60,069 bases of DNA from a virus (IMGVR_UViG_3300047557_001236:1-60069), one strand, 5' to 3'. Counted from the first letter of the stretch, positions 9,616 to 60,069 are shown. Notes: generated by a model from the sequence alone, not told the origin. Translations and numbers: made by a program.

Positions 9616-9644
9616 TTGACATAGTAAAGTTGTAGTTGTAGTAT
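9616..9644 (+). promoter_or_regulatory. Sigma70-type promoter
   Basis: TTGACA (9616)-17 bp-TAGTAT (9639) in the gap before 9686. Confidence 0.75.
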
Positions 9645-9685
9645 TAATAAACGGGCTAAGACCCGATATAAATAAGGAAACTAAA

Positions 9686-10105
9686 ATGAACGATGCCGAA
9701 GCGGTAGTACAACCTGTCGTCGACGTTGACGAGTTAGTCAAGATCTATATCAAGATACGTGATGCTCGTGACCAAATCCGACGTGAACTAGAAGAAAAAG
9801 AAGCTGACCTCAATGAGCAGCTTGCCATTATTGAACAAGGATTACTTGAAGCATGCAAAGCAACTAATGCCGACAGCATTAAGACTAAACATGGGCTTGC
9901 CATGCGCTCAATCAAATCTCGTTACTGGACTAGTGACTGGGAGAGATTTTACGAATTTTTACACGAGCATGAAGCACCTGACTTGCTCGAGAAACGCATT
10001 CATCAATCCAATATGAAGCAGTTTTTGGAAGAGAATCCGGATTTGCATCCCGCCGGTTTAAATGTGGATCGCACATACGCAATTACTGTTAGGAGAAGCA
10101 AATGA
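9686..10105 (+). CDS. Hypothetical replication-module protein (coiled coil)
   Basis: SD AAGGA; located between the helicase and the SSB-like gene. Confidence 0.7.
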   Translation: MNDAEAVVQPVVDVDELVKIYIKIRDARDQIRRELEEKEADLNEQLAIIEQGLLEACKATNADSIKTKHGLAMRSIKSRYWTSDWERFYEFLHEHEAPDLLEKRIHQSNMKQFLEENPDLHPAGLNVDRTYAITVRRSK

Positions 10106-10998
10106 GTAACGTCGCCTTATTTAATAACCAAATGCCCGACTACCTTAAGGAAGTCGAACTTGATGATGTAACCAAAGCCCTATCGGGTGGCGGTTCGCAA
10201 GTTAAGCGTATTGCGCTTGGCAATAACAAATTTGTGCTTAAAGTTGATGGTACTGAAGTATCCAAGACCAACACGGATAAGCTAGAAGTTGTTATTGTTA
10301 ACGCTTCTAAACATATCTCAAGAACATTTTATGCGAAAGCATGGGATCCTAAAGCCGATGCAGCACCGCCTGATTGCTGGTCTAACGATGGTGAGAAACC
10401 CGACCCATCTGTGAAGAGCCCACAGAGTGCAACTTGTATGGGATGCCCTCAAGATATTAATGGTTCTGGGCAGGGTAATACCAAAGCATGCCGTAAAAAT
10501 CGTCGTATTGCAGTAGCACTAGCAGGTGATTTAGGGGGTGACGTCTATCAAATGACGCTTCAATCCAAGTCAATCTTCTATGACATGAAAGACCCTGGTG
10601 ATTTAGATCATATGCCGTTTAATCAGTACGCTAAATATGTTGGCTCACAAGGCTACAATTTAAATAGCTTAGTTACTGAAATGCGGTTTGATGAAGATTC
10701 AACTGTTGGCAAACTGTTCTTTAGACCAGTGCGTTTCTTAGAGCGTCATGAATGGGATCAAGCTAAAAAACTTGGCGAAACCCCAGCTGCTAAGAACGCA
10801 ATCACAATGACTGTAGCACAGGCAGATGGACTAAAACCTAAACTAGCTGCACCAGCAAAAGCTGAAGTTGGTAGCGTATTTGTAGAGGCTGAGGCTGTTC
10901 CTGAACCCAAAAAACGGGAAGAGAAAAAAGAAACACCTACTCCAAAACGAGACTTAAAAGCAGTTATGAGCGGATGGTCTACTGACGACGAAGCATGA
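10102..10998 (+). CDS. Putative ssDNA-binding/annealing protein
   Basis: Replication context, Cys cluster PDCWS...CxxCP...C, acidic tip WSTDDEA; function inferred. Confidence 0.5.
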   Translation: MSNVALFNNQMPDYLKEVELDDVTKALSGGGSQVKRIALGNNKFVLKVDGTEVSKTNTDKLEVVIVNASKHISRTFYAKAWDPKADAAPPDCWSNDGEKPDPSVKSPQSATCMGCPQDINGSGQGNTKACRKNRRIAVALAGDLGGDVYQMTLQSKSIFYDMKDPGDLDHMPFNQYAKYVGSQGYNLNSLVTEMRFDEDSTVGKLFFRPVRFLERHEWDQAKKLGETPAAKNAITMTVAQADGLKPKLAAPAKAEVGSVFVEAEAVPEPKKREEKKETPTPKRDLKAVMSGWSTDDEA

Positions 10999-11222
10999 GT
11001 TTAAGAGGTTATAGTTTACGTCTTGTTGATGCAATAAAAGCTGCGAACCCTCGGCATCCCGGGGTTCGTCTTGGCAAATATTGCATTGCTAAAGGTATAC
11101 CGGTAAACCAAATGGCGAAACGCTTTGGTGTATCTCGAATGACGATGTACACCTGGTTTACTGGTACTGGAGTGCCACGCAAAGATAAGATCAAACTAAT
11201 TGAAGAACTATTAAGTAGTTAA
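10995..11222 (+). CDS. Cro/XRE-like HTH protein
   Basis: VNQMAKRFGVSRMTMYTWFTG helix-turn-helix pattern. Confidence 0.8.
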   Translation: MSLRGYSLRLVDAIKAANPRHPGVRLGKYCIAKGIPVNQMAKRFGVSRMTMYTWFTGTGVPRKDKIKLIEELLSS

Positions 11223-11230
11223 CGTCTACG

Positions 11231-11300
11231 GGGGCAGCTAGCTCGACGGAGCGAACTGGGATATTGCCGAATCCCTTGCTGCCCTTATTTTTTCGGTGTT
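11231..11300 (+). promoter_or_regulatory. Candidate structured RNA leader (three-way junction) upstream of primase-helicase
   Basis: GGGCAGC/GCTGCCC closing stem, GCTC-GACG-GAGC and GGGAT-N8-ATCCC hairpins, T-rich tract, then SD GAGGA. Confidence 0.5.
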
Positions 11301-11308
11301 GAGGAACT

Positions 11309-14137
11309 ATGGCAACAACAGATTTGTTATCAGCAGTATTAGCACCCGAGGGGGAGGGATGGTACTGCATAGTAGGACTACGACAAGACGGCTCAAAACC
11401 ACCTAAACAATCTTTTCATCAGACCTTAGCTGAAATAGATACAAAAGTTAGCGAGTTGGTGGATGATAAGTACGATGTGTATTTTGCATGCTCTAAGTTT
11501 ATAGATCCACAAAATGGCAGGATCCAACCCAACGCAAACATAATCAAAGCATTTTGGCTTGACGTTGATTGTGGTGAGGGTAAACCCTATGCAAATCAAA
11601 TTGATGGTTTATATGCCCTCAAAGCATTTTGCAAAAAGATTAAGATGCCGTTACCGACTGTGGTTAATTCCGGTCGAGGCGTGCATGCTTACTGGAGATT
11701 AACTTCTGTAATAGACCGAGCACAATGGAAGCCCGTAGCCGAGCGCATTAAAGCTCTGTGCGAAGAACATGAGTTTGCGGCTGACCCATCACGGACCGCA
11801 GATAACGCATCTATTTTACGTGTACCAGAAACTTTTAATTTCAAGGACGAGCCGCCGTTACATGTAACAATTTTGGGTATCCAACCTGAAGTTGATTACG
11901 AGCTTATTAAGCAAACCATCGGCGTATTAGTTGCACCTGACTGGGTGCCTAGGCAATATAGCGAGTCGGCTTTATCACTTTTAGGTAATAAGCAAAGCAG
12001 GTTTAAGACCATCATCATGAAGACCATGAATGGTCAGGGCTGCGCTCAAATAGAAAATATTGCAGTAAATCAAGATACTATTGAAGAACCATTATGGAGA
12101 GCAGGGCTGTCAATAGCGGCAGTCTGCGTAGACCGAGATGAAGCTATTCACAAAATTTCAGAGGGGCACCCCGAATATACGCCAGAGAACACTGAACGCA
12201 AGGCTAATAAGACAAATGGCCCTTACACTTGCCAGACATTCGAAAAGCTCAACCCTAGCGGATGCGAAGGATGTCAGCACAAGGGAAAGATCTCATCGCC
12301 CGTGCAACTTGGATCGGAGATTGCAGCTGCGGAAGATAATATCATTGTCGAAAAAACAGAGACTGGTCAAGAAGAGACTTTTGAAATACCACCGTATCCG
12401 TATCCGTATTTTAGAGGTAAAAATGGCGGCGTCTACATCGAAATAAAAGAAGACGAAGATACGGTTGATGCTAGAAATATATACGAGCACGACCTATATA
12501 TAGTTAAGCGCTTACACGACCCAGCCAAAGGCGAGTCAATTTGGTTAAGGTTGCATTTACCAAGAGACGGAGTCAAAGAATTTGCAATGCCGACATCGGA
12601 TGTAATGACGATTGAGCGGCTACGGGAAAGGCTTGGCTTTCATGGCGTTATAGCGCCCAAGAAACAGATGGATGCAATTATGAGTTATGTAATTGCGTCG
12701 GCTAAAAACTTACAACATTCCATGGAGTTAGAAGTTATGCGTAATCAATTTGGTTGGACTGACAAAGATAAAAAATTCATTATAGGAGAACAAGAGGTGT
12801 CTGCAGAAAAAGTAGCTTATAGTCCCCCATCCGTAGCCACTGGTTCATTGGCCGACCATTTAAAACCTGCTGGTAGTTTTGAAGCTTGGCAAAAAATTAC
12901 TAAAGTTTATGACACACCAGGTTTTGAGCCGCATGCGTTTGGCTTTTTTACTGCTTTTGGCGCTCCGCTACTTAAGCACCTCAAACTTAAAGGTGCCATC
13001 ATTAACTTGGTAAACAATACTTCCGGTACAGGTAAGTCAACTATCCTTAAGATGTGCAATAGCGTCTGGGGGCATCCTGAAGAACTAATGCTTCAATGGA
13101 AAGACACCATGAACTCTATGATTCACCGTCTTGGGGTTATGAATAATTTACCCGTGACTATTGACGAAGTTACCAAAATGAGCGGCGATCACTTTTCAGA
13201 CCTGCTTTATGCTGCATCGCAAGGTAGGGGCAAGAACCGCATGAAACAGCATGAGAACGTCGAACGTGCAAATGCCACCAAGTGGGGCACCATTGTATTG
13301 ACCAGCTCAAATGCATCGTTTTATGACAAGCTAGCTACCCTTAAAGCTACTCCTGATGGCGAGTTTATGCGTCTGTTGGAGTACAAAATTGAACTAACCG
13401 GTAATTTATCTAAGCAAGAAGCCGAAGAGATATTTAATGCGCTATATGACAACTATGGACACGCAGGCGTTAAGTATGCCCAATACTTAGTAAGTGACTT
13501 AGAAGGCGCTATGGACCTCGTAATGCAGGTTCAGCAGCGTTTAGATAAGGCAGTTGACATGAGCAACCGTGAGCGATTCTGGTCAGCTGTGGCGGCTTGC
13601 AACATAGCTGGTGCTTTAATTGCTAAAGATTTAGGGATTATTGACTTTGACATTCTTAGGGTTTACGAGTGGATTGTTAAAGAACTCAAAGTCATGCGGC
13701 ATGAAATTAAGGCGCCTACCGTTGGCACTATAGATGCAATTAGTGAGTTTATTAACGAACACCGTGGCTCTGTATTAGTTATCAATGACGAGGTCGACAA
13801 CCGTACGGGTATGGAGCAACTGCCAATTGTAGAACCAAGATTAGACAAGTTATACATCCGTATCGAGCCTGATACTAAAGAGATGTACATTAACGCTAAG
13901 CAATTCAGAAAGTATTGCACCGACAATCAGATTACTTTAAAAGACGTCCTTGCCGCATTGCAGGCAGATAAGGCATACCTAGGTATTAAGAAAAAACGCA
14001 TCTCCAAGGGTACTAAGATTAAGTCTGGAGCTATAGATTGCTTTGCTTTTGACCTGTCGGCTAAGTGTTTTGAAGAGGAGCACTTGATTGATATAACGGC
14101 TGAAGATGCTGATACACGGGCTCAACTTTCAAGTTAA
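11309..14137 (+). CDS. Primase-helicase (AEP-type primase + DUF927-like + P-loop helicase)
   Basis: WLDVD and SGRGVHAYW primase motifs, Cys cluster, QFGW, Walker A SGTGKST, Walker B VTIDE. Confidence 0.85.
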   Translation: MATTDLLSAVLAPEGEGWYCIVGLRQDGSKPPKQSFHQTLAEIDTKVSELVDDKYDVYFACSKFIDPQNGRIQPNANIIKAFWLDVDCGEGKPYANQIDGLYALKAFCKKIKMPLPTVVNSGRGVHAYWRLTSVIDRAQWKPVAERIKALCEEHEFAADPSRTADNASILRVPETFNFKDEPPLHVTILGIQPEVDYELIKQTIGVLVAPDWVPRQYSESALSLLGNKQSRFKTIIMKTMNGQGCAQIENIAVNQDTIEEPLWRAGLSIAAVCVDRDEAIHKISEGHPEYTPENTERKANKTNGPYTCQTFEKLNPSGCEGCQHKGKISSPVQLGSEIAAAEDNIIVEKTETGQEETFEIPPYPYPYFRGKNGGVYIEIKEDEDTVDARNIYEHDLYIVKRLHDPAKGESIWLRLHLPRDGVKEFAMPTSDVMTIERLRERLGFHGVIAPKKQMDAIMSYVIASAKNLQHSMELEVMRNQFGWTDKDKKFIIGEQEVSAEKVAYSPPSVATGSLADHLKPAGSFEAWQKITKVYDTPGFEPHAFGFFTAFGAPLLKHLKLKGAIINLVNNTSGTGKSTILKMCNSVWGHPEELMLQWKDTMNSMIHRLGVMNNLPVTIDEVTKMSGDHFSDLLYAASQGRGKNRMKQHENVERANATKWGTIVLTSSNASFYDKLATLKATPDGEFMRLLEYKIELTGNLSKQEAEEIFNALYDNYGHAGVKYAQYLVSDLEGAMDLVMQVQQRLDKAVDMSNRERFWSAVAACNIAGALIAKDLGIIDFDILRVYEWIVKELKVMRHEIKAPTVGTIDAISEFINEHRGSVLVINDEVDNRTGMEQLPIVEPRLDKLYIRIEPDTKEMYINAKQFRKYCTDNQITLKDVLAALQADKAYLGIKKKRISKGTKIKSGAIDCFAFDLSAKCFEEEHLIDITAEDADTRAQLSS

Positions 14138-14303
14138 TTGGAAAAATTTTGTGGTCGGGTCGTCTTTTTTTATTCCTTGTTTGGATACAGATGAGGCTTT
14201 AAATCAAGTACTTAGGACTACAAAACGCCTTGGATATACCGTAAAAACCCGCACTGTTGTGGAAAAGGGGATCAATGGCTTGCGAGTATGGCGGATTAAG
14301 TAG
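14106..14303 (+). CDS. Small hypothetical protein
   Basis: VGSSFFIP...GLRVWR pattern of small phage proteins; last gene before the terminator. Confidence 0.7.
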   Translation: MLIHGLNFQVNWKNFVVGSSFFIPCLDTDEALNQVLRTTKRLGYTVKTRTVVEKGINGLRVWRIK

Positions 14304-14363: not shown

Positions 14364-14388
14364 CCCCCGCTACGGCGGGGGCTTTTTT
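14364..14388 (+). terminator. Intrinsic terminator at the convergence of the two arms
   Basis: CCCCCGC-TACG-GCGGGGG then TTTTTT (UNCG loop). Confidence 0.9.
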
Positions 14389-17300
14389 AGTCGTTTGGAT
14401 CGCCGTAGTCGTTTAGTTCTGATAGCTGCCCAATAAGTTTTTTATTAAGTGGCATACCACCATTAGCCTCAGCTAAAGCTCTTTGCTTGTACCGAGACGT
14501 TACAGAACGGCTTAAGTTTTTGCCATTTATGGCAGCCCCAGGATTAGCTGCATTAAAGTTGCTAATTTTATCAAGGGTTTCTTCAACTAAATCAGAATCT
14601 CCATTATCTATACCCATAAAAAACGCATCTAGCAAAGCCTGCCTGCGATTTAATATCTTTTGCTCAATGGTCTTCATCTCAATATTAGATTTTTGACGTT
14701 GAGCTAAACGCTCTGGGGTAAAGCCTAATAATTGAACGCCGGCTTCATATCCAGTAACGTCGCCTAAAAGCTCATTACCTTTTAATGTAGTGGCACGACC
14801 TTCACTTGCAAGGCGAATACTCTTTAGAGCATTTTTAAGAAATGCTGGTGAGCCAGTTTCAAAAGCCCTTTCAATATGTCCACTGTTATATTGTTTAACG
14901 GCTTCAAGCCCATTAATAGCTAACCCAGCTGAAGGACCTAAGAAGTTAAATACCATGTCTTTAAACGTAGCAACTTCATCTGGGCTATATCTAATATCCC
15001 TAAACCACATGTCATTTAAGCTTAAGCGGCTAGCAAGGTCTCCGCCAAGCACTTGGGATGCTACACCACGGGATATTGAATCACCAACAAAACCACCAAA
15101 GGTTTCATTGCACCAGTTTTTAAACCAGTTTTCAAAGTCCCACTCCTCTTCGTCATCGCCAAATACTGATTGCAGGGCATTAGCTACACCAGCTACAGCC
15201 CACCATAAGGGTAAACCTCCAGCCCCCGCAAACACTGCGGTCATACCTAAAGTGCCAAATAGTCTATTACGAGCTTCTATTTGCACGTCTGCAATAAATT
15301 GATCTACAGCCGCATCAAGTTCTGTTTCTGTAAGTGGGGGTAAATCAGGTGTATTTTGCCTACGATCTTGCCTAATCATGTCGGCTATATCTTTATACAT
15401 GTTAAGCCTAGGATCATCTGGATCTAATCTTTGTATTTCTTTTCGTTGGGCAGTAGTAAGAACGCTTCTTTGCCATTCATATACACTTCTTGCCAACAAA
15501 TAAGTCATCTGCTGAGCAAACTGTTTAAATTGGAAAATAACTTTGGCATAAGCGGGTTGGAACCAACGAGGTTTGTTTAACGTTGAATAGTCAAACATAG
15601 CTTTATAGGTAAGCTCTTTAGTTACCTCAATTGCTTTATTAAAAGCAGCTTCGTCTGCATAACCATCTTTTTTAGCTTTTTCATAAGCCATGTCAAACAC
15701 GCTCATGCCTACAACTTCACGGTTAAATTTCTCAGCTCCATGGAACAAGCCGCTTAACCATTTCATAGCAGTGTGTGATTTGCCAGTGTACAAATTAGAC
15801 GGCGCTTCAGCCATGCCAACTATATCGTGAGACAAAGTAATATCAAATAGTCCATCGACTACAAGTTTGTCATATGCACGTTGTTGTAGTGGAGTTAATA
15901 CGCCGTCTTTGTTATTTAACGACGGGAATGCAACATTACCTTCTTTATCTCTGAATCCAGCACTGGCAAACTTTTTAGCCATTTCAGCCATTTTTGCTGC
16001 TGTTTTTGTGTTGCCATATCTTGCACCTACTACTGGCATACCGACTGCCACAACACCTAGCATATTGACTAATGCCGACGCAGGTGAAGTCATATACCAA
16101 ATAAATGAGGCATTTGATAAAAATGCGGGTAAACCCCCAGTATCGGTTGGGTTCATTATGTATTTAAGGCGTTTTTCTAGTTCGGCTACGTACTCTTGGT
16201 CAATCTTGCCTTCTCTGCCGCCTTTAAATTTAGTAACAGCTTCTTTAGCAGTAGCTAAATCATCAAACATACCACGGCTAAATTTGTACCTAGAATGCTG
16301 ATACGACATGTGAAAAGCCGAAGACGTAAACGCACGAAGCATATCAAGTTCCATACCAGGTGTGCCTTTACGACGTATAAACATTTTACGTACGCTTTGG
16401 TCTGGTAGGGTAAGGAAATACAGCTGCTCAAGGTTTTCCTCGATATTATTTTTAAGTGCTTCATTAGACTCGCCTTTGCCAGACCGAACAATATTCTTTA
16501 GCTCTTCTAAAAAAGTAAAGTCACGCATGTTTTCGTTAACCAGATCTTGAATTTGGTTACGAGGTTTAACCTCATTGTCTAAAAGTTTGCGCCCTAAGCT
16601 TTTTTCTAGTTCAGCTTTACGCTTTGCTATGAATCTATTGCGTTGACCGGCGCTTTCAAACATATAAAATTCTTTTTGGTTGCCCTCTAAAAACTGCACT
16701 GAGAAACGACCAAAGCGGCGAATTGGAAAGTACACATCTATTTTGTGTTTAGCAAAGTATTCTTTTACTTTACTTATATCTTCTAAGGCGTCTTGATATG
16801 CTTTTGCGCTTACTCCAGTTGGATCTTGAAGTAACAAGTCGTTATAGTGGGTATCAGCAAGCGTGCCTTTTCTACCAATATCAGTTGGGCTTTGACTAAG
16901 AAGTTTGGTTTCTTTATCGTATTCAGCTTTTTGTCTTATTTTGTCACCAACAGTTCTGTATTGAGCACGTTTATTTTCAGTAATACTTTCAACATAGTCG
17001 GCTAAGCTGTCTTTATAAAAATCACGTACTTGTCTATAAATGGCACGTCCTTCGTCATCAAGTTTTTTCCATGCAGCATCAACTTCAGCCCTATACGTTG
17101 GTCCCTTATCGGGATCTTTATTAATTGAATACCTTGCACCTAGTTTAGATATATAAGCTGGGCGATCATCTAACGTAACGTCAATCATTAATTTGTTAAG
17201 CAACATGGCTAGCTCAGGATGATCTTTTTGCCAGTTTTGCCATTTCAATGCAATCTTCCTTACTTTTTCAAGGCGTTGATTACGATCGTCCAGCATACCT

Positions 17301-20300
17301 TCTACTTTTTCAATAAAAGTTCTGAACTGAGGAATGCGGTTACCAGCCAAATCATTTAGCTGCCGCAGAGTAAACCCACCCAAATAATACTGACGAGCCG
17401 TGTCATTTACACTTTCAAGGAAGCCTTGCATACCATCTTTAACCATGCTCCACTCAGGGCGACCCATTAACCGCTTATCTATAGTCTTTAAGAAGTTAGG
17501 ATTAAATGGTCGATTGCCTTTTAAAGTACTTTGACCTCGAACTCTAAATGCTTTTAAATCTGCCGTTGTAGCCGGAGGAGCTTGTAGGATTATGTTGGCA
17601 TTTGCAAGGGTATAGCCCAGCACGTTATCCATACCAAATAGCTTGACGATAAAGCTAGTGAACTTATCCCACAGGCTCTTTTGAGTACCTTCATATTTGA
17701 TATCACGTAAAAACTCTTGGAAGTTTTCATTTGAAAATGCTTCCGACACAAACTCTTCAATATCTTTGAAACCGTAAGTTGAGCTCTTCTCTCTTAAAGT
17801 TTGCTTATCTGATTCAGATAAAGCTTCAAATTTATTTTTAGCGTACTCATACAAATTCTTTAGTTCTACTACAGCATCCTGCTGTTCTTTACTAAGTTTG
17901 TTAAAGTTGTCTGGATCAAGAGCGTAGCTTGTGCCCGCATGTGTTGTCTCATGTAGTAATACATATGTGCTTAACCCACCACGTTTTGGATTAAGGCTAA
18001 TAGTATTTTCGCCTCTACCGTAATAGTAAACACCAGCAGCATCTATATTGCCAACAGCTTTACGGTATGCCTCAAGTGTAGAGTTTAGTTGGCCAATAAC
18101 GGGGGGTATGGCATCATTTGCAAAAGATAATCGTTTTGACGCAAGATCTTCTAAACCCTTTAAATTATTGCGAAACACTTCTTCTCTGTCTAAAGGCTGG
18201 TCAAACATGTAATGCTTAATAAAGCCTTCACCCCATTCAAACAACTGTAAATGGTTTAGAAGAGTCCGTTTAGCTTTGTATGCACCAGCATCAATAGTCT
18301 TTTCAGCATAAGCAAGTTCATTACCAATATCTACTTTGGTTTGTAAGTTAAGACTTAAAAGTCGTTTAGCATAGTTAGATATGAACTTGACGTAGTCAGA
18401 AGCAGGACCTTTAAGTGTTTTGTATGCACCGGATACAGAGGACTCAGTTAGTAATTTAAGCGCTCCATTCAAATCATTAGCTTCTAAACGAGCTAAAACC
18501 GCAGGGTGTATTGGGTAAAACAACTTAGGATCAGGCGTATCAACTTTGCTTGGCGGCATGTATTGAGCAAGCCCAGCGTTAAATACAAAGCCTTCTGCTT
18601 TACCAGTCGGCGCACGGGATATAGTTTGAATGTATTTGCGAGCTACGCCACCTTCTTTTTTAAGCTTATCAGCTCGCTCGACTGCAGCATCGGCTCTAGA
18701 TACCATTCTTTGGTATGCAGCAACAGTAGCATCAAAACGTCTAAGTTCTCTAGCAGGTAAGTTTTCTTCAACCCACTTTCTAAATAGCTCAGCCTGTTGT
18801 TTATTTTGATCTTTGTGTATTACGCCAGAATAGCTTGTATCTTCTACACCTAAATCAAACGCTGCCGAGCGCATTGCTAAGCTGTATGTCGGATAGCCAT
18901 TTTTACCACCAAAGTAAGCATAGGCTGCTTTTTGCTCTGGAGTTCTTGTACTTGCTTGAGTGTTATCTAACTCTACCAGTGCTCTTTGTATTTGTTGCGC
19001 AAGATATGGCTCTAGTTTATTAAGCTCTTCTGTAATTTCAAAAGGCAATACCGTCTCTTCTATACCAATGCGAGAGCGTTCGTATTTGTTAAGTGCGTCT
19101 TTTAGTTGTTTACTAAAGTCGTTGATACCTCTAACAGTGTTTAAATTAGGGGCAGACGTTAACGATGCTAATGCTTCTGACTGCGATTTAACATCCATAC
19201 CTGCAAAACGCTGCGATAGTGCAGAAGTAAATACTTCTCGTTCTTTGGGCGCAATACTTAAACTATCAAAAAATTGATTTAGGTAAGCTAAACGATTGTT
19301 TAACTCAGCTCCAGTTAGTGGTGCACTGACATCAGGACCTTTTGGTGGCTCTGGGGGAGGACCTATTGGACGCCCTTTTTCATCTCTTTTTACGTAGCGA
19401 GCTACCTCTTGACTAGTCTTAAACCCAAGAAACTCGGACACATCATCAAGCATGTTTCTTACTTTATCTTTAAAAGCTACTGCTTGAGCAGGATTACCTG
19501 TGCTTGGTTTTAGGCTATTAAAGAACGCAGTTAGAGGCTTTAGTGGGCTATCTGGCGTACCAATTAGCATCATCTTTGCCCGCTCACCCTCTGGTATCGG
19601 CGTTATACCTTCAACATCAGGAACATATCCTGGAGGAGCTTCTAGTTGAAACTCGTCTGCTTTCCCTTCTATCCTACGTTGAGTGCTTTCGCCTGGTGGC
19701 TCTCCAAAGTCAAAGCCAGGTTGGCTGGGCGCACCAAAAGATTTAAATTTTTGTTCGGCTTGAAGTTCTTTAATTACTTCTTCTATTTCTTCAATGCGTG
19801 GATCATTTGGGTCAAATGCAGCTATTTTTGCTTGCTGCCCCCTTAACTCATTTAATTGATCGTCGAATTTCTTTTTTCGTACTCCAGCATCTGTAGTAGA
19901 TCCAGTAGTTCCGCCCAAGCCCGTTTCGAGAGATTCTCCAGTTCCGGTGTCAGTTGTACCTTTTCCGAGTCCTTTTTGGTCAAGTAGCGAAACGCCAGGC
20001 TCACCTCCTCCGGTGTCAGCTTCAGTACTGTATTCTCTTGCTTCATCTATCGCACTCCTTCCAGTCTCCTCCGCTACTTCTAATTGCCGTTGACGTCGTC
20101 TTTCTAGATAAGCACCAGCTCCTGCCCCCGCTACTCCAAATACTCCGCCACCAACTGCGCCACGTACGGATGACTCAATAATACGATTAAATTCTTTACT
20201 ACCCCAAAGTTCAGGGTTTTCTTGTACAAATTTTTCTGCCGTAATACTAATTGCTTCTTGAGCACCTTCAGTTAAACCTTCAGTAGCGGCACCACCAACA

Positions 20301-21106
20301 GTAGCGCCAACAGCTTTTCTAGCTACCCCTGGTGCCATACCAGAGCGCTCTAGTAATTTTTCTACTACACCTGCTTTTGCAGACGGCCCTAGTTGTTTAA
20401 GAATTGCAACAGGTAACACAGAATCCAACGCAGCCGACACCGACCCAGCTAATACAGCAGCAGCTGGCTCCATTTGTCCTGTTTCTTCATAAATATTTTG
20501 AAACACTTCTGGTGCATTAAGTGCGTAAGAACCTAAGAAAGTACCACCAATCTGCCCACGACCAACGCCTTGAGCAGTTTTCATAGCTGCATATCTTGCT
20601 CCAGCTTCAGTAGCTTCTCGCTCGGCTAACTTTTTAGCGGCTGCACTAGCAGCCATACGTCCACCAGCTACTCCAAACCCTGCACCTGGGACAAGCGCAG
20701 TTGCCATACCTGGAACTTGTTCGGCTACAGTTTCTAAAGCAAACGGTATGTAATCACCAATACCTTTAACGTCTTCTAAAGTTTTATACCTAGCACCATA
20801 TTTTTGCTCAATCTCACGCTGAGTTTGTGCAGCTTCTTCCATTTGCTTAGCCGCATATTCTTCAGCGCCAATGGCTTTGGCTGCCATGGCTGGTAATACA
20901 TCACCAAGTAAAGATCCTGTTTGTTTTGCACCACGAACAAGTGCACGCCCTGTCATACTCATGAGCCCTGTGTCTTTAGTAGGCTCTGGTTCCGTCGGCT
21001 TTAATTGTGCCTGAACAGCAGCATATGCTTGAGCATCAGTTAAATCGGTAGGTGAATCTACCTCAAACTTGCCTTGACCAGGTACATCAATCTCGTATTT
21101 AGGCAT
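14387..21106 (-). CDS. Large polyvalent/ejected internal virion protein with zincin and PLxRFG-like domains
   Basis: 2239 aa; LLHETTH...EEFVSEAF; YFPIRRFG; Gly/Ala-rich hydrophobic segments; last gene of the virion arm. Confidence 0.75.
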   Translation of the reverse strand: MPKYEIDVPGQGKFEVDSPTDLTDAQAYAAVQAQLKPTEPEPTKDTGLMSMTGRALVRGAKQTGSLLGDVLPAMAAKAIGAEEYAAKQMEEAAQTQREIEQKYGARYKTLEDVKGIGDYIPFALETVAEQVPGMATALVPGAGFGVAGGRMAASAAAKKLAEREATEAGARYAAMKTAQGVGRGQIGGTFLGSYALNAPEVFQNIYEETGQMEPAAAVLAGSVSAALDSVLPVAILKQLGPSAKAGVVEKLLERSGMAPGVARKAVGATVGGAATEGLTEGAQEAISITAEKFVQENPELWGSKEFNRIIESSVRGAVGGGVFGVAGAGAGAYLERRRQRQLEVAEETGRSAIDEAREYSTEADTGGGEPGVSLLDQKGLGKGTTDTGTGESLETGLGGTTGSTTDAGVRKKKFDDQLNELRGQQAKIAAFDPNDPRIEEIEEVIKELQAEQKFKSFGAPSQPGFDFGEPPGESTQRRIEGKADEFQLEAPPGYVPDVEGITPIPEGERAKMMLIGTPDSPLKPLTAFFNSLKPSTGNPAQAVAFKDKVRNMLDDVSEFLGFKTSQEVARYVKRDEKGRPIGPPPEPPKGPDVSAPLTGAELNNRLAYLNQFFDSLSIAPKEREVFTSALSQRFAGMDVKSQSEALASLTSAPNLNTVRGINDFSKQLKDALNKYERSRIGIEETVLPFEITEELNKLEPYLAQQIQRALVELDNTQASTRTPEQKAAYAYFGGKNGYPTYSLAMRSAAFDLGVEDTSYSGVIHKDQNKQQAELFRKWVEENLPARELRRFDATVAAYQRMVSRADAAVERADKLKKEGGVARKYIQTISRAPTGKAEGFVFNAGLAQYMPPSKVDTPDPKLFYPIHPAVLARLEANDLNGALKLLTESSVSGAYKTLKGPASDYVKFISNYAKRLLSLNLQTKVDIGNELAYAEKTIDAGAYKAKRTLLNHLQLFEWGEGFIKHYMFDQPLDREEVFRNNLKGLEDLASKRLSFANDAIPPVIGQLNSTLEAYRKAVGNIDAAGVYYYGRGENTISLNPKRGGLSTYVLLHETTHAGTSYALDPDNFNKLSKEQQDAVVELKNLYEYAKNKFEALSESDKQTLREKSSTYGFKDIEEFVSEAFSNENFQEFLRDIKYEGTQKSLWDKFTSFIVKLFGMDNVLGYTLANANIILQAPPATTADLKAFRVRGQSTLKGNRPFNPNFLKTIDKRLMGRPEWSMVKDGMQGFLESVNDTARQYYLGGFTLRQLNDLAGNRIPQFRTFIEKVEGMLDDRNQRLEKVRKIALKWQNWQKDHPELAMLLNKLMIDVTLDDRPAYISKLGARYSINKDPDKGPTYRAEVDAAWKKLDDEGRAIYRQVRDFYKDSLADYVESITENKRAQYRTVGDKIRQKAEYDKETKLLSQSPTDIGRKGTLADTHYNDLLLQDPTGVSAKAYQDALEDISKVKEYFAKHKIDVYFPIRRFGRFSVQFLEGNQKEFYMFESAGQRNRFIAKRKAELEKSLGRKLLDNEVKPRNQIQDLVNENMRDFTFLEELKNIVRSGKGESNEALKNNIEENLEQLYFLTLPDQSVRKMFIRRKGTPGMELDMLRAFTSSAFHMSYQHSRYKFSRGMFDDLATAKEAVTKFKGGREGKIDQEYVAELEKRLKYIMNPTDTGGLPAFLSNASFIWYMTSPASALVNMLGVVAVGMPVVGARYGNTKTAAKMAEMAKKFASAGFRDKEGNVAFPSLNNKDGVLTPLQQRAYDKLVVDGLFDITLSHDIVGMAEAPSNLYTGKSHTAMKWLSGLFHGAEKFNREVVGMSVFDMAYEKAKKDGYADEAAFNKAIEVTKELTYKAMFDYSTLNKPRWFQPAYAKVIFQFKQFAQQMTYLLARSVYEWQRSVLTTAQRKEIQRLDPDDPRLNMYKDIADMIRQDRRQNTPDLPPLTETELDAAVDQFIADVQIEARNRLFGTLGMTAVFAGAGGLPLWWAVAGVANALQSVFGDDEEEWDFENWFKNWCNETFGGFVGDSISRGVASQVLGGDLASRLSLNDMWFRDIRYSPDEVATFKDMVFNFLGPSAGLAINGLEAVKQYNSGHIERAFETGSPAFLKNALKSIRLASEGRATTLKGNELLGDVTGYEAGVQLLGFTPERLAQRQKSNIEMKTIEQKILNRRQALLDAFFMGIDNGDSDLVEETLDKISNFNAANPGAAINGKNLSRSVTSRYKQRALAEANGGMPLNKKLIGQLSELNDYGDPND

Positions 21107-55490: not shown

Positions 55491-56001
55491 GCAAAATAAT
55501 ATACACCAAGGAGACGGGACTCCAAAATATTTGGTGGGGGGCCATTTCGCTATTAACGCAGCTGTACTTCCCATGGAAAAAAGTAGACCCCCCGGGGGGT
55601 GTAAGTTTAAATGAAAGTTTGGTTGCTGTATGTTTTAGGTTATGTATTACGTGAGAATAGGATAATTTAAAAGGGTGACAAAAAGTCGGGCTCATTTTTA
55701 AATTGCGTAATTGGTTGTGCAGATTATTGTGTATATATCGTTCTAGGTTCCATCAACTGTTATTTGGGGGGTCAGGTAGTGGTGGGGTGTGAACTTGCCA
55801 AAAATTTTATGGGCTATGCCTAGTTGTAATTAAATACTCCAATGCTAGTTATGTGGTCGAAATTTTTTTTGACCCTTTCGGCTCGGCTCGGCTTGTGTGC
55901 GGTTGTAGTCGTTTGCCTGTAAAAATCCTACACTATTACATTGGTTCAGGTAATATAAAGGTATGGGGTAATCAAGCCCTATATTATTTGCGAGGTGCAT
56001 T

Positions 56002-56187
56002 ATGACTAGAGGTATTTGGGTAGTTGAATGGATAAGTGGTAATGAAATGCTTACTAAGTTTTTTCATTATGAATCAGACGCTAGAAAGTTTTGCCAAGAT
56101 TTATATAACGAGTGCCTGATTGTTGGTGATGTGTTCCGAGATGATTACAGGGTTTATTCTGATCTCGCTGAGCAAGGTTTATTGTAG
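56002..56187 (+). CDS. Early hypothetical protein (acidic)
   Basis: SD GAGGTG before ATG. Confidence 0.65.
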   Translation: MTRGIWVVEWISGNEMLTKFFHYESDARKFCQDLYNECLIVGDVFRDDYRVYSDLAEQGLL

Positions 56188-56222
56188 TGCGGTTTGAGGG
56201 TTGCCGATTCAGCCCTCGCTTT

Positions 56223-56253
56223 GCACAATTCAAGGTCGTATCTTGGTTTGTGC
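56223..56253. repeat. 31-bp imperfect palindrome, copy 1
   Basis: GCACAATTCAAG-GTCGTAT-CTTGGTTTGTGC. Confidence 0.8.
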
Positions 56254-56273
56254 GTTTTTATGGAGATGTAATC

Positions 56274-57005
56274 ATGCCAAATAAGGCAAATACTAAAGTA
56301 GTAAACCCTTTTGAGGGTGTAGTGAATCAGGTTGTAAATCCCGATGGTTCTGTCGTTCCTGTGCAGTATGTGGCTAATCCTGCTGAGGTCTATAACTTAT
56401 CGGCTGAGGAGTTTGCCGATTTGACGGATTTAGCAGAGGATTGGTTCAATGGTTGCGACCTACTCGGCAAAGGTAAAACCTTGCGTTCTGATACCGCCAA
56501 GGCTATCAAGAAAATGCTTGGTGAGTTGCCTGAGTTTGCCAAGTATCACGCCTACCGCCAAGCATTTATCAATCAAATGCTTAGTTCGGGCAAAACCAAG
56601 AACGATACCTCGGCTGGTCAGATGTGGAACGAGTTGATCGATTTGGTGCGTGATATATGCAAACCCTTTGCTATACCCAAATCACCCAAGGCTAATGCTC
56701 AGCGTATGCAGTCAAAGCGAGATCAGGAACGCAAGGCGTTGGAATCGCTTAGTGATGATGAGTTGCTGTCGGCTTTGGCTAATTACACTGATAGCAAACA
56801 GTTCACCAAGTGCAATATGGTGCAGACTGTATTGACTCAGCGTGAAAAACTTAGGGTTAAAAATGACCCCAAGTTAATCAAGGCTCAAGAGGAATTGAAA
56901 GCCAAGCGGGATTCGATTATTGCAGATGTTCGCAAAATTAAATCTATGGATCACCTAGCCAAGATCCAATCATACATGGCTCAGTATGTTCCTAAAGTTG
57001 TCTAA
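56274..57005 (+). CDS. Early hypothetical protein
   Basis: SD GGAG before ATG 56274; followed by two terminators. Confidence 0.75.
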   Translation: MPNKANTKVVNPFEGVVNQVVNPDGSVVPVQYVANPAEVYNLSAEEFADLTDLAEDWFNGCDLLGKGKTLRSDTAKAIKKMLGELPEFAKYHAYRQAFINQMLSSGKTKNDTSAGQMWNELIDLVRDICKPFAIPKSPKANAQRMQSKRDQERKALESLSDDELLSALANYTDSKQFTKCNMVQTVLTQREKLRVKNDPKLIKAQEELKAKRDSIIADVRKIKSMDHLAKIQSYMAQYVPKVV

Positions 57006-57020
57006 TTAGTCAGTTTTACC

Positions 57021-57073
57021 AAGCCCTCGAAAGAGGGCTTTTTTTCGCCTAGCATTTTTGCTAGGCTTTTTTT
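57021..57073 (+). terminator. Two tandem intrinsic terminators
   Basis: AAGCCCTC-GAAA-GAGGGCTT+T tract and GCCTAGCA-TTTT-TGCTAGGC+T tract. Confidence 0.88.
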
Positions 57074-57175
57074 ATTTCTTCACCCTCTTTAGTTCCCTAT
57101 CTCAATAGGGAACGGTCATTGTAGCAACGCAATAGCCCTTTCTGACTTCGGGCTTTTTGACTTATGCTGGAGTCC

Positions 57176-57204
57176 AGCATAACAAAATTTATTTTGTTTG
57201 TCAA
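57176..57204 (-). promoter_or_regulatory. Leftward sigma70-type promoter overlapped by a 21-bp palindrome
   Basis: TTGACA-17-TATGCT with TG extension; TTATGCTGGA-G-TCCAGCATAA at 57162-57182. Confidence 0.6.
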
Positions 57205-57210
57205 GCGTGC

Positions 57211-57542
57211 ATTGTTCTAAAAAACCCCCCTATTGTTCTGTATTGTTCTATGCCCTTGGAACATTCCTAACCCCTTGATTTAACTAAGTTTTATTGCGTT
57301 TTTTGGGGTATTGTTCTATTGTTCTGTCAAACTACAAACGCCAACTTTTTTTAGCCCTTCGAGAGACCCCCTTCGCATAGTGCAGAGGTGTTCCAAAGAA
57401 AAATTTGCCCCCCTTAATATAATCTAATAGAACAATAGAACAATATACTAAAACTAACCGCAAAGCCAATACCAGCATGGTTTTCTATTGTTCTATCGCA
57501 CATAGAACATTATCGAACATTACGAACAATACACAGAACATT
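57211..57542. repeat. Iteron-like TTGTTCT/AGAACAA array (origin candidate)
   Basis: About 14 direct and inverted copies; perfect 17-bp inverted pair 57309-57325 / 57429-57445. Confidence 0.75.
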
Positions 57543-57601
57543 CAACCCACAAAGCCCATGCCTACACACGCACACACAAGTAAAATAAATCCTACAAACT
57601 C

Positions 57602-57630
57602 TTGACAAAGTAAGGTATTTGTGGTATACT
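57602..57630 (+). promoter_or_regulatory. Strong sigma70-type early promoter
   Basis: TTGACA-17-TATACT with extended -10 TG. Confidence 0.85.
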
Positions 57631-57676
57631 TAAAGAATGGGATATCGTCTAAATTTTTTGCAACCAAACCCAACCC

Positions 57677-57707
57677 GCACATTTCAAGTTCCCATCTTGA
57701 TTTGTGC
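57677..57707. repeat. 31-bp imperfect palindrome, copy 2
   Basis: GCACATTTCAAG-TTCCCAT-CTTGATTTGTGC. Confidence 0.8.
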
Positions 57708-57725
57708 AACACAAGGAGATGTTAT

Positions 57726-57992
57726 ATGTATCAAGCAAAGTTTCAAACCAACACCGCATACGATACGCACATACTATGCACCGTATGTCATTTCCCCAAA
57801 GTCACCCAAGGTCGCTACGACCACCTCAAAAGCATCAAACAACGCATTACTTGTCATGCCTGCGGTGAGAAGATTGCCGAGCAAGAATCCCGCAAAAAGC
57901 AAAGCCGAGTATTACCCATCAACAAAAGCACCCCGACTTACATCAGCGACCCTGAGATGCTCAAGCAACTAAACCCAAAGAGGACGACATGA
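57726..57992 (+). CDS. Zinc-finger hypothetical protein
   Basis: SD AAGGAG before ATG 57726; CTVC...CHACG. Confidence 0.75.
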   Translation: MYQAKFQTNTAYDTHILCTVCHFPKVTQGRYDHLKSIKQRITCHACGEKIAEQESRKKQSRVLPINKSTPTYISDPEMLKQLNPKRTT

Positions 57993-58354
57993 ACAGGCTA
58001 CTAACAACAGAAAAACTACGGCAAGAAGTAGACGAAATATGGACAAAAACCCAAGCCTATGAAAAAGGCTACCAAGAAGGAAAGGAATACCAAATGAGTG
58101 AACCAAGAGAACCAAGATTTGAAGATGATTTTGATTGCGATACCGACCCTCAAGAACCCATGCCACCCGCATGGTTTGAAACCACTATCGAGGACATTGC
58201 AATCATGAAGTCCCACATCTACGCACAAGAGTATGACCCACACGCAGGCAGGGTCGTGCAAAAGGGCAATTACGCAGAAATCAAGGAAGCATACAAGGCG
58301 GGCTTTCTTGATGGCTTTACCCACCGCCTAACACAACTTAACACAGGAGAATAA
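57989..58354 (+). CDS. Early hypothetical protein (acidic)
   Basis: SD GAGG; ATGA overlap. Confidence 0.65.
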   Translation: MNRLLTTEKLRQEVDEIWTKTQAYEKGYQEGKEYQMSEPREPRFEDDFDCDTDPQEPMPPAWFETTIEDIAIMKSHIYAQEYDPHAGRVVQKGNYAEIKEAYKAGFLDGFTHRLTQLNTGE

Positions 58355-58356
58355 GT

Positions 58357-58539
58357 ATGACTACCTTCACAACCGAAGACCGCATCAATGCGGAAAAAAC
58401 TCAAGAACTTCAAGCCGAGATACGCAATCTCAAGATCGAACTCAAGCACCAAAAAGAACGGGTCGAGAATTGGAAAGCGGCATACGACAAAGTCATGGAC
58501 TACAACAAGAAACTCCTCGCAAAGGGGTGTGACAAATGA
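58357..58539 (+). CDS. Early coiled-coil hypothetical protein
   Basis: SD AGGAG; MTTFTTEDR. Confidence 0.7.
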   Translation: MTTFTTEDRINAEKTQELQAEIRNLKIELKHQKERVENWKAAYDKVMDYNKKLLAKGCDK

Positions 58540-58625
58540 AGTCGTTTTTGCAGATAGGGTTATTCCTACTCATGATCGCCGTATGCGTAGTCTTGTGGTC
58601 AATCAAGTTGGAGTATGGGTTATGA
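58536..58625 (+). CDS. 29-aa single-TM peptide (not in ORF track)
   Basis: MKSFLQIGLFLLMIAVCVVLWSIKLEYGL; ATGA overlaps at both ends. Confidence 0.55.
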   Translation: MKSFLQIGLFLLMIAVCVVLWSIKLEYGL

Positions 58626-58807
58626 CTGAATACTACAAGGGACAACGCATTAGTGAGTTGTTGGGTGAGATTGACAGGCTGACCAAGATATTGGACACCT
58701 TCAAATTCGAGACCCTAAACCAAGCCGAGCAAGACCATGTGACCAAAGCGTTCTCGCAAATGGCAATCATGAAAGCCAAACTCACCGCATTACAGGGGGA
58801 GAAATGA
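58622..58807 (+). CDS. Early hypothetical protein
   Basis: SD GGAG; ATGA-coupled start MTEYYKG. Confidence 0.6.
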   Translation: MTEYYKGQRISELLGEIDRLTKILDTFKFETLNQAEQDHVTKAFSQMAIMKAKLTALQGEK

Positions 58808-59052
58808 ACTCTATGCGTTTAGCCAAGCGAAGGTATCAGATGGAAATGCTGTTAGTTGACGCACTACCAGATGAGCCACCGAGCCCTCAAACTATTCTCG
58901 AGAAAGCCGTGAGTAGGGCAATCGAGGACTTGCAACAGGCTCAAGCAAGGGGTATCAATCGCCGACACAAAGACATATTGATTTGGAAGGCGTGTTTTGA
59001 TTTACGACAAGCATTGGAGAAAGCAAATGAAACAAAGAAAAATAGTAGTTGA
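58804..59052 (+). CDS. Early hypothetical protein
   Basis: SD GGGGAG; ATGA overlap. Confidence 0.65.
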   Translation: MNSMRLAKRRYQMEMLLVDALPDEPPSPQTILEKAVSRAIEDLQQAQARGINRRHKDILIWKACFDLRQALEKANETKKNSS

Positions 59053-59287
59053 AGGCTTAGACATGACCACATATACAGGGACAGAAGACCCATACCATGT
59101 GGTAGGTAGAACTTATCGAACCACAAGCGAGGCATTTAGAGATGCAGAGTATGCGTGTGCCATAGAAAAGCACACCTCAGACTTTCGCCATGCAGTTAGA
59201 TGGTTCTCGGACTTTTTTGTAGCACTATCGTTGGGGAGTATAGCCATATCCCTGCCGATATTCCTTCTTTTATGGCTAACCAAGTAA
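59027..59287 (+). CDS. Early protein with C-terminal TM helix
   Basis: SD GGAG; RT..EAFRDA.YA.AIE; hydrophobic C-terminus. Confidence 0.65.
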   Translation: MKQRKIVVEGLDMTTYTGTEDPYHVVGRTYRTTSEAFRDAEYACAIEKHTSDFRHAVRWFSDFFVALSLGSIAISLPIFLLLWLTK

Positions 59288-59288
59288 T

Positions 59289-59319
59289 GCACAAATCAAG
59301 GCTTAGTCTTGAAATGTGT
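59289..59319. repeat. 31-bp imperfect palindrome, copy 3 (inverted relative to copy 2)
   Basis: GCACAAATCAAG-GCTTAGT-CTTGAAATGTGT. Confidence 0.8.
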
Positions 59320-59344
59320 TCTTTTAACTAACCAAGGAGTAATT

Positions 59345-59863
59345 ATGAATCAAGAAGCAAATGCAGTATTAGAAAAAGCGAAGTCTAACTTATCATCACC
59401 TGACTTCAAAACCATGTCCATCATGGAATCCACCAAGTGGTGTGTAGAGCGTGGTTATGACAAGCCTGCGGACATCTCAAGTATCACAGGCAAAAAAGCG
59501 GGGGTTATCAGCACCGCCTTGTGGAAGATCCGCAACCCCAAGAGGGTCAAGGTTCTAGCCCGTCGTGCCGCTAAGAAAAAAGCGGCGGCTAAGAAAGGTA
59601 GCCCTGCCGTTATGAAGACCAAGAAACCCAAGGTCAAGAACGGCTACTACGAAGATGGTATGGAGACCCCATTCCTTGATGCTTTGAACCGCAGAGGTGT
59701 TTTCCCTGAGTTTGTAAAACCAAAGAGTTTGGAACTAGCAACGGAGTGGCTTGGTGAAACCAAAACCACCACGATTCACAACGAACTCATTGCAGAAAAC
59801 CGCAGGCTCAAGGTTTTGGTCGAGCACTACGAGTCCTTACTTTTTGGTAAGGGAGGCAAGTGA
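59345..59863 (+). CDS. Early basic protein, possibly DNA-binding
   Basis: SD AAGGAG; HTH-like PADISSITGKKAGVISTALWK followed by Lys/Ala-rich tract. Confidence 0.65.
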   Translation: MNQEANAVLEKAKSNLSSPDFKTMSIMESTKWCVERGYDKPADISSITGKKAGVISTALWKIRNPKRVKVLARRAAKKKAAAKKGSPAVMKTKKPKVKNGYYEDGMETPFLDALNRRGVFPEFVKPKSLELATEWLGETKTTTIHNELIAENRRLKVLVEHYESLLFGKGGK

Positions 59864-60069
59864 TGTATAGATCCTCGATGTATAACTCAGCAAGATTGCC
59901 GAGTATCGCCAATTACGACATGGCTAAGAGGATCTACCAAGAGGCTCGACCCATTCGTGGGCGATACCCCGAGGAGAGACCGCTTGGTAAGAACCGCAGA
60001 TACTCATGGATGCAAATTCATGAACGGGTAAGAAGCATAGAGTCTGAAGGTAATCCCGTAGGCGAGTAT
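59863..60069 (+). CDS. Hypothetical protein, truncated by the window end
   Basis: SD GGAGG, TGATG overlap, open frame MYRSSMYNSARLP... to the end. Confidence 0.65.
   Translation, partial: MYRSSMYNSARLPSIANYDMAKRIYQEARPIRGRYPEERPLGKNRRYSWMQIHERVRSIESEGNPVGEY

Follow-up and report, generated by a model that had tools for sequence, protein, structure and literature searches.

Phages of the T5 type resist type I and type II restriction systems unless the sites lie in the first-step-transfer region. In T5 and BF23 protection of the remaining DNA is attributed to a pre-early function; this protector is broad and still unidentified, and the distal border of the first-step region is marked by a long noncoding, repeat-rich injection-stop region (PMC10644984, excerpted text). 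In Murciavirus, a type I motif makes a phage sensitive only when situated in the first-injected region, protection of the remaining DNA is proposed to come from an early product, and the leading region is variable in gene content. The same work notes that the leading regions of conjugative plasmids are depleted in restriction targets, alongside early anti-defence genes, that earlier bioinformatic surveys ignored the position of sites, and that headful packagers should not show the effect (PMC12455610, excerpted text). Experiment has already shown, for T5-like and recently for some T7-like phages, that restriction acts mainly on the first-injected DNA. Here we describe an unusually clean evolutionary footprint of such logic in an unrelated, uncultured lineage. 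The footprint lies in a 60,069-bp stretch of phage DNA, IMGVR_UViG_3300047557_001236 (the window, meaning the whole stretch analysed), as a zone that begins at position 55653, at the head of the early arm. At least nine types of restriction site are erased from this one arm, the erased set differs between sister lineages, and the sites recover gradually along the direction of early transcription. The abrupt edge of the zone is called the cliff below, and the gradual recovery the ramp. In the main texts of the literature, supplements aside, we found no report of a footprint in this lineage, nor of a multi-enzyme cliff and ramp.

The zone resembles the T5 first-step-transfer region in being a site-free segment (no sites, where about 71 are expected) in a genome with sites elsewhere (888), and it would likewise be the part that enters first. 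It also occupies a comparable fraction of the genome and contains small orphan early genes. Unlike T5, the phage has a layout like that of HTVC023P and Pag-Yong1, and is unrelated to T5. Nor is there a noncoding stop at the distal border: the repeat cluster is at the proximal end of the zone, and the zone is followed by a ramp. The evidence also differs, being an evolutionary footprint of at least nine site types at once, where that for T5 comes from single-enzyme experiments. No homologues of the T5 pre-early genes A1, A2 and dmp were found among 20 zone genes, using Pfam and PHROG libraries that are assumed to include T5 models.

The graded recovery suits the slow, progressive entry of T7-like phages and Murciavirus. 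Unlike T7, no phage RNA polymerase was found, and only the 25-kb plus-strand arm is co-directional with the proposed entry. Unlike Murciavirus, the sites are type II palindromes of 4-5 bp and not a bipartite type I motif. As in conjugative plasmids, the avoidance is sub-genomic and in DNA that would enter first; the process here would be ejection of double-stranded phage DNA and not single-strand transfer. Classical genome-wide site avoidance (PMC6286503, excerpted text) is echoed in the loss of CGCG and the deficit of GGCC and CCGG, but the main finding is local.

The site-free zone

The zone is under strong and purely local selection against the sites of host type II restriction systems. Its part within the window, and the sites that precede it, are as follows.

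55653..60069: in-window part of the palindrome-purged zone, 4,417 bp, running on past the contig end
55540..55652: cliff, the last site cluster before the zone (GGCC at 55540, AGCT at 55560, GTAC at 55564, CCGG at 55592, ACGT at 55649)
55587-55600: 14-bp G/C palindrome ACCCCCCGGGGGGT, within the cliff

The first-pass annotation had listed nine site types as absent from 55653 to the window end, and five of them as present just before it. Computed counts agree with every one of these absences and positions: the zone contains no copy of ACGT, AGCT, CCGG, CGCG, GCGC, GGCC, GTAC, CCWGG or GCWGC. The second-order Markov expectations for the seven 4-bp palindromes are, in the same order, 6.9, 14.3, 7.0, 7.0, 10.0, 11.6 and 14.1, which sum to 70.9, so that composition does not explain their absence. 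These seven are the only 4-mers of the 256 that are missing from the zone.

A similar expectation is obtained from the remainder of the window. Six of the palindromes have 888 sites in the 55,652 bp outside the zone, predicting 70.5 in the zone, and the Poisson probability of finding none is 2.5e-31. The other windows of 4,417 bp (n = 51,236) have a median of 74 sites and a minimum of 34, and the next-largest gap between sites is 578 bp. When the largest gap of each palindrome was sought blindly, the maxima of ACGT, AGCT, GCGC, GTAC and GGCC all began at 55107-55649, and those of the nine other palindromes were elsewhere and unremarkable.

The palindromes that had been described as retained are indeed present: GATC (10 copies, 14 expected), TCGA (16, 17.9 expected), TGCA (24, 28.9 expected), CATG (21) and CTAG (10). 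TCGA has a central CG and TGCA a central GC. Both are kept near expectation, which rules out a dinucleotide bias (depletion of CpG or GpC) as the cause. A general avoidance of hairpins or palindromes was rejected too: it would not spare nine palindromes, nor would the purged set change from lineage to lineage.

Two of the earlier statements have to be qualified. AGCT was called abundant in the late arm, and it does have 324 copies there, but this is only near its Markov expectation of 353. CGCG was counted among the losses specific to the zone; it is absent from the zone, but also from the entire 60 kb (about 80-119 expected), and is therefore not a marker of the zone. For six of the seven sites, counts outside the zone match or come close to expectation, and the genome as a whole is also short of GGCC and CCGG.

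Genome layout and the edges of the zone

The window is a single phage contig with both ends open. The sequencing runs that hold it are labelled freshwater metagenome; the run data used here are assembled Logan contigs, and 4 of the 17 listed runs were aligned to the window. The map of open reading frames (ORFs), together with Pfam and PHROG matches, is that of a tailed phage with two convergent arms. The minus arm, from 55.7 kb down to 14.4 kb, carries the gene in the small-terminase position and the genes for the large terminase, portal, capsid, tail, DNA-ejection and polyvalent proteins. The plus arm begins at about 55.85 kb, has orphan early ORFs up to the end of the record, resumes at position 1 and stops at 14.3 kb. 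The features that border the zone are listed here, with the ratio of observed to expected sites abbreviated to O/E.

53154-54725, minus: terminase large subunit, adjoining the cliff on its site-rich side
54722-55342, minus: terminase gene in the small-subunit position, beside the large subunit and the cliff
1..312, plus: distal purge edge, with the first site (AGCT) at 313; the contig starts inside an ORF that overlaps the polymerase start
41-1879, plus: PolA (DNA polymerase A)
41..14303, plus: replication arm, containing the ramp (site O/E from 0.38 to about 0.9)

All named relatives are distant ones, their terminase identity being at most 58%. They are the HTVC023P/027P pelagiphages, 023Pt_psg01, DSL-LC04 and the group of the Planktothrix phage Pag-Yong1. 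A near-identity search of the zone against named phages gave no match. Relatives were sought more widely by scanning viral contigs with the polymerase, which gave 272 matches, of which 80 loci with 57-85% identity were kept. The 26 loci with useful upstream flanks were inspected, and a full analysis was made of five genomes or fragments: the window, G001 (66.5 kb, a circular assembly), G002 (97% complete), G004 and G005.

The record is an incomplete linear contig. This follows because both of its ends cut ORFs (its first 40 bp hold the last part of an ORF, and the stop of this ORF overlaps the polymerase start at 41), because relatives carry about 6-7 kb extra between 60069 and 1, and because the run contig of a close strain extends about 5 kb beyond 60069. 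For the same reasons we rejected the reading that the record is circular and closed, in which the gap would wrap around its ends to 4,733 bp and a deletion would be present. The extra block of the relatives encodes a MoxR-type AAA ATPase, a DUF2201 VWA/metallopeptidase protein, two proteins of about 338 residues that belong to no family, a small endonuclease and others; none of these genes is found anywhere in the window.

Since the contig end cuts the zone, the far boundary must be read from the relatives. In all five genomes, the seven palindromes drop abruptly soon after the terminase genes and stay low until the polymerase, and the nine others are flat. When each genome is counted with the sites that it purges itself, the gap in G004 spans 10,957 bp; 3 sites remain in 11.2 kb of G001, about 9 in 9.7 kb of G002 and about 4 in 11.2 kb of G005, as against one site per 60-85 bp or so outside the zones. 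Measured from the polymerase start, four of the five genomes have their distal edge at about -570 to +350, and in G005 stray sites appear from -2033. The far boundary is thus located near the polymerase start. The full zone measures about 10-11 kb, roughly 17% of a 66-kb genome, of which the window shows the first 4.4 kb and the last 0.3 kb. The zone had been described as sharp-edged and 4.4 kb long; its terminase-side edge is sharp, and the 4.4 kb are only part of it.

The two edges are quite different. On the terminase side, the Markov-corrected O/E is about 0.9-1.1 right up to the edge, with the nearest sites 4-341 bp away; for the late-arm side of the cliff in the window it is 0.93. At the other side recovery is gradual. 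In the window, O/E is 0 in the zone, 0.38 at 1-2 kb, 0.65 at 2-6 kb and about 0.9 beyond. In successive 4-kb bins from the edge, it is 0.03, 0.03, 0.18, 0.51, 0.77, 0.77, 0.71 and 0.94 for G001, and 0.05, 0.10, 0.37, 0.87 and 0.92 for G002. The distance over which a site recovers depends on the site. CGCG never recovers, and in the first 16 kb of G001 there are no copies of CCGG and GGCC where about 60 are expected; both stay under-represented genome-wide. The edge is not simply the strand switch, as a plus-strand ORF of about 212 residues is outside the purge in G001 and G002, and its homologue in G004 is purged.

An unbiased scan of all 4- to 6-mers found that CCAG/CTGG, GCWGC and GTAAC/GTTAC are additionally depleted in the zone. 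The non-palindromic CCAG/CTGG has 6 copies in the window zone (20 expected from the Markov model, 43 at the frequency found in the remaining genome) and is strongly depleted in the zones of all five genomes. GCWGC is low also in the zones of the window, G001, G002 and G005, and GTAAC/GTTAC is among the most depleted zone words in the window and G001. These depletions hint at further enzymes beyond those that recognise 4-bp palindromes.

Selection and ancestry

The set of purged sites is not the same in all lineages. The window purges AGCT and keeps GATC (10 observed, 14 expected); G001 and G002 purge GATC (1 of 30 and 0 of 31 expected) and keep AGCT (21 of 45 and 40 of 50 expected). The comparison was extended to orthologous genes, by summing five zone genes over 14 loci picked from the 80 for their long upstream flanks or their membership of the purged clade, with the following result.

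ACGT, CCGG, CGCG, GCGC, GGCC: 0-3 copies in 14 of 14 loci; kept in none
AGCT: 0-2 copies in 8 loci; 8-14 copies in 6 loci
GATC: 0-1 copies in 5 loci; 9-19 copies in 5 loci
CTAG: 1-3 copies in 4 loci; 12-23 copies in 9 loci
GTAC: 0-3 copies in 13 loci; 10 copies in 1 locus

Orthologous genes thus have lineage-specific sets of missing sites, which argues for selection by host restriction systems and against ancestry or composition. Moreover, the upstream zones of L004-L006, L041, L046 and L050 have no nucleotide homology to the window zone, yet are nearly site-free; the purge is therefore independent of gene content. The mosaic of site sets indicates that the zones have probably been shaped by differing host restriction repertoires, and not by an imported block, a compositional quirk or a constraint of DNA structure. 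A Markov-corrected, palindrome-specific depletion that varies by lineage places the zone among the cases of site avoidance driven by host restriction-modification systems.

The suspicion of a chimeric join, raised by the first-pass annotation itself as something that would undo its claim, is excluded by a run contig covering 54903-56228, which crosses the edge with 0 differences; the run is possibly the window's own source. An assembly chimera, or mosaic import from a phage that avoids the sites genome-wide, can be given next to no weight. In favour of import, no homologue of the leftmost 1.4 kb of the zone (56002-57005) is found in relatives. However, the GC content is alike (0.435 vs 0.430), the ramp carries the purge on into the conserved genes for polymerase and replication, and it recurs at the equivalent map position in relatives with other gene content and other site sets. 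Local restriction avoidance, confined to one stretch at the head of the early arm, is well supported, and it is not the product of chance, composition or chimerism.

It is worth adding two observations on the relatives. CGCG is absent in 34 of the 50 loci with a polymerase identity of 65-85% and has at most 5 copies in the other 16, while the 30 more distant, higher-GC loci mostly have 7-99 copies, with just 1-2 in L063-L065, L070 and L078. Some relatives, in addition, have up to four copies of a near-perfect palindrome of about 29 bp, GGACAAAGTGTCA..TGACACTWTGTCC, within the purged zone, often directly preceded by a T-run. The palindrome is found at 322-348, 5183-5209 and 8891-8917 of L016, and also in L013, L014, L019 and L085-L091; no copy occurs in the window when 3 mismatches are allowed.

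A probable leading end of a linear genome

The shape of the profile argues strongly for an entry in which this zone comes first, and we consider it probable that a linear phage genome enters in a time-ordered way from the cliff, with the zone as its leading end. On a circular map, a cliff that lies beside a ramp is the pattern expected of a linear genome whose fixed end is the cliff, provided that it entered from there with an exposure that falls during entry. The genome would then end near 55650, beside the terminase genes, and the cliff would be the junction of its trailing and leading ends. DNA would enter from the cliff along the direction of early transcription, and the first 10-11 kb or so would lie bare in the cytoplasm until a phage function comes into action, so that any site within them would be lethal. 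DNA entering later would be progressively safer, as a product of the leading end, or cargo arriving with it, blocks restriction; hence the late arm could tolerate hundreds of the same sites. This protection would depend on the enzyme, being complete for AGCT, ACGT, GCGC and GTAC, partial for GGCC and CCGG, and nil for CGCG.

The features drawn on in weighing this reading are the following.

57602..57630, plus: near-consensus sigma-70-type promoter, TTGACA-17-TATACT with TG, 11/12 matches, reading into the conserved early genes
57989..58354, plus: conserved acidic early protein, isoelectric point 4.7, with an acidic N-terminal part that varies and a conserved helix-hairpin-helix domain at the C terminus
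59345..59863, plus: conserved DNA-binding-type early protein, with a helix-turn-helix, a lysine-rich stretch and a long C-terminal helix
21874-23520: DNA-ejection protein gene, near the polyvalent protein gene

The layout fits: the cliff lies beside the terminase genes, the near-consensus promoter points inwards, and ejection proteins are encoded. In packaging of the lambda type, filling of the capsid starts with the end that bears the terminase genes, and exit from it starts with the other end. With that order of packaging, the zone would be the leading end.

The first-pass annotation had proposed staged entry as in T7 or T5. The cliff and ramp fit such a proposal, as do the precedents of T5/BF23 and Murciavirus; the terminus and the order of entry are what we infer from them. 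As between the two models, we think that gradual, T7-like kinetics fit the ramp better than a strict T5-type stop.

In a strict two-step transfer of the T5 type, the zone would be a long terminal direct repeat that is collapsed in the assemblies, with a cis-acting stop signal near the polymerase start, and early proteins would release the remaining DNA after the stop. In four of the five genomes the polymerase does start no more than a few hundred bp from the distal drop, despite the variable length and content of the zone, and the fraction of the genome is of the same order as the 8% of T5 (PMC10644984, excerpted text). Contig ends also favour it at first sight, since 22 of the 80 loci break within 1 kb upstream of the polymerase start and only 3 of the 80 within 1 kb downstream of the polymerase end, and the window itself begins 40 bp before the polymerase. 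These ends are, however, scattered over about 900 bp and not at one point, so that the pile-up may be due to a variable spot at which assemblies break, to a step in coverage or to a terminus. The contig ends of relatives were considered as termini and rejected, because the polymerase-side pile-up is scattered and the upstream ends of close relatives do not map to the window edge. A single stop would not predict a graded ramp over a further 10-15 kb with enzyme-specific recovery, and nothing like the noncoding, repeat-rich distal region of T5 and BF23 is present. We therefore doubt the two-step version, and regard it as unlikely.

Several observations weigh against entry of the zone as a leading end, or against an early product that protects the rest. 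At the distal edge there is no noncoding stop region, the stop of the upstream ORF overlapping the polymerase start in the window and in L007, and the position of the edge shifts relative to the genes, with the ORF of about 212 residues outside it in G001 and G002 and inside in G004. The run contig across the cliff fits terminal repeats or concatemers, but also a circularly permuted genome. The late arm (14387-55695, 41 kb) is transcribed opposite to the proposed entry, so that transcription alone cannot pull in the whole genome, and family searches found no phage RNA polymerase, only a weak match of 138 residues to a vRNAP PHROG. Promoter-like sites as a class are no more frequent than in shuffled sequence (7 found, 9.3 expected). 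Two relatives have a genome-wide loss and no local zone: the cultured Pag-Yong1 (L096 and L097, 69% GC) has no GTAC, and the seawater phage 023Pt_psg01 (L001 and L002) has no CATG. No anti-restriction family was found by Pfam and PHROG among the 10 zone ORFs of the window and 10 conserved zone genes of relatives. Finally, AlphaFold models of the acidic protein 57989-58354 (alignment of 10 sequences, mean predicted local distance difference test score, pLDDT, 73) and of the DNA-binding-type protein 59345-59863 (4 sequences, pLDDT 70) gave no Foldseek match in the PDB at E <=0.001, the latter having only weak helix-turn-helix or sigma-like matches.

If the zone is indeed a leading end, then sequence alone would give the leading end, the direction of entry, non-headful packaging and part of the host's restriction repertoire, and it would narrow the search for a broad anti-type II function to a few conserved early genes. 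Surveys of site avoidance that average over whole genomes would miss such a local signal, a point also made in PMC12455610 (excerpted text).

The search for a protector

A more tentative proposal, which we would not call likely, is that the clade carries, within the leading 10-11 kb or together with it, a broad shield against many unrelated type II enzymes, as an independent counterpart of the T5 protector. The cliff and ramp would then be a sequence-only record of the terminus, the polarity of entry and the enzyme-specific time to protection in uncultured phages.

As to what the protector might be, we rank the product of an early gene ahead of a co-injected polyvalent protein; the former is plausible, though it falls slightly short of an even chance. 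The only family matches among the 20 zone genes are the AAA ATPase, DUF2201 and the small endonuclease, all from relatives. A DNA mimic like Ocr was looked for, with no Pfam match; acidic ORFs do exist (56002-56187 and 57989-58354), the model of the latter having no structural match. Both AlphaFold models are confident in small domains only. Look-ups of 56187-57005 and 57989-58354 in a protein atlas gave matches scoring below 0.9, and only to unnamed viral or bacterial clusters. The DNA-binding-type protein 59345-59863 is a candidate for a DNA-coating or regulatory role.

The protector might instead be cargo of the capsid, the leading stretch being exposed before the cargo acts. The candidate is the following.

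14387..21106, minus: polyvalent virion/ejection protein of 2,239 residues, candidate co-injected protector

Residues 980-1880 of this protein match phrog_10089, 'DarB-like antirestriction', with E 1.3e-89; phrog_4287 is also matched. LPD39 is its sole Pfam domain, and residues 1043-1206 match PDB 8vb2, a 'tetrameric ejection protein', with E 7e-6. These matches make it probable that the protein is ejected with the DNA. Pag-Yong1 has an annotated large polyvalent protein at the equivalent map position, and the failure to assign any early ORF to anti-restriction also speaks for cargo. DarB of phage P1 is a giant, capsid-packaged protein that combines methyltransferase and helicase domains. The protein here is like it in being a giant virion protein with a DarB-like match that is presumably delivered with the DNA. 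It is unlike it in having neither a methyltransferase nor a helicase domain by Pfam, although these define DarB, and its matched part overlaps the segment resembling an ejection protein. Dar proteins, furthermore, protect against type I systems and are not known to act against type II, and arrival with the DNA does not obviously explain 10 kb of full exposure followed by a ramp. Either this protein or other capsid cargo as the protector is improbable in our view. In the Pag-Yong1 record, it may be noted, an S-adenosylmethionine (SAM) lyase is annotated at a distance of about 1.5 kb from where the early arm begins.

A different explanation is that the phage modifies its own DNA (by methylation, glycosylation or hypermodified bases), which would shield the bulk of the genome, the zone alone being unmodified. 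The genes concerned are in the replication arm.

3880-4425, plus: SAM methyltransferase-like gene
6870-7607, plus: FkbM methyltransferase
5357-7607, plus: region with two weak glycosyltransferase-like ORFs and the FkbM-type methyltransferase

We know of no mechanism by which a packaged genome would go unmodified over just one contiguous 10-kb stretch. The two glycosyltransferase-like matches are below the Pfam cut-offs, and the genome-wide loss of CGCG and partial loss of GGCC and CCGG indicate that the bulk DNA is exposed to some enzymes. Some phages of the HTVC023P type do have base-hypermodification genes beside PolA (PMC9599517, excerpted text), but no thymidylate-synthase-like gene or other hallmark of hypermodification is found near PolA in the window. 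On this evidence, phage-directed modification is very improbable as the explanation of the zone.

Genes of the zone and other features

The remaining features of the zone, in order from the cliff, are these.

56002..57005, plus: first small transcription unit
56002-56187, plus: acidic ORF of 61 residues
56187-57005, plus: orphan ORF of 272 residues, with no Pfam or PHROG match
57021..57066, plus: two tandem hairpins resembling intrinsic terminators, which close the first unit
57213..57509: TGTTCTA repeat cluster, forward then reverse copies, with an inverted repeat 57301-57334 / 57420-57453
57726..57992, plus: conserved CxxC...CxxC early protein with an invariant C-terminal ...LKQLNPKRTT, homologues in 17 of 80 loci
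58622..58807, plus: conserved coiled-coil early protein of about 61 residues (MTEYYKGQRISELL...KAKLTALQGEK)
58997..59287, plus: conserved small early protein with a C-terminal membrane helix
59860..60069, plus: N-terminal 70 residues of a protein of about 310-334 residues, cut by the contig end

The orphan ORF of 272 residues found no relative in the search of viral contigs; it has a weak similarity (E 0.003) to the ORF of about 212 residues at the equivalent position in relatives. Two sub-threshold Rfam matches to small RNAs fall on the tandem terminators, and most simply are the terminator hairpins themselves. The TGTTCTA cluster is at the equivalent position in all six genomes examined for it, and nucleotide homology to relatives begins there; it is probably an operator or regulatory region that heads the conserved early genes. 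The protein cut by the contig end is the most widely conserved early gene in relatives (at least 19).

Three further genes of the replication arm were identified.

2459-3133, plus: PD-(D/E)XK nuclease
8059-9615, plus: SNF2 helicase
11309-14137, plus: DUF927 primase-helicase

A search for tRNA genes in the window found none. In the late arm, seven diverged copies of a 48-nt unit, spaced by 66 or 132 nt, are found at 31573-32214 (minus) within an ORF of 327 residues beside the tail-fibre gene, and probably represent a repeated structural motif of a fibre or spike protein.

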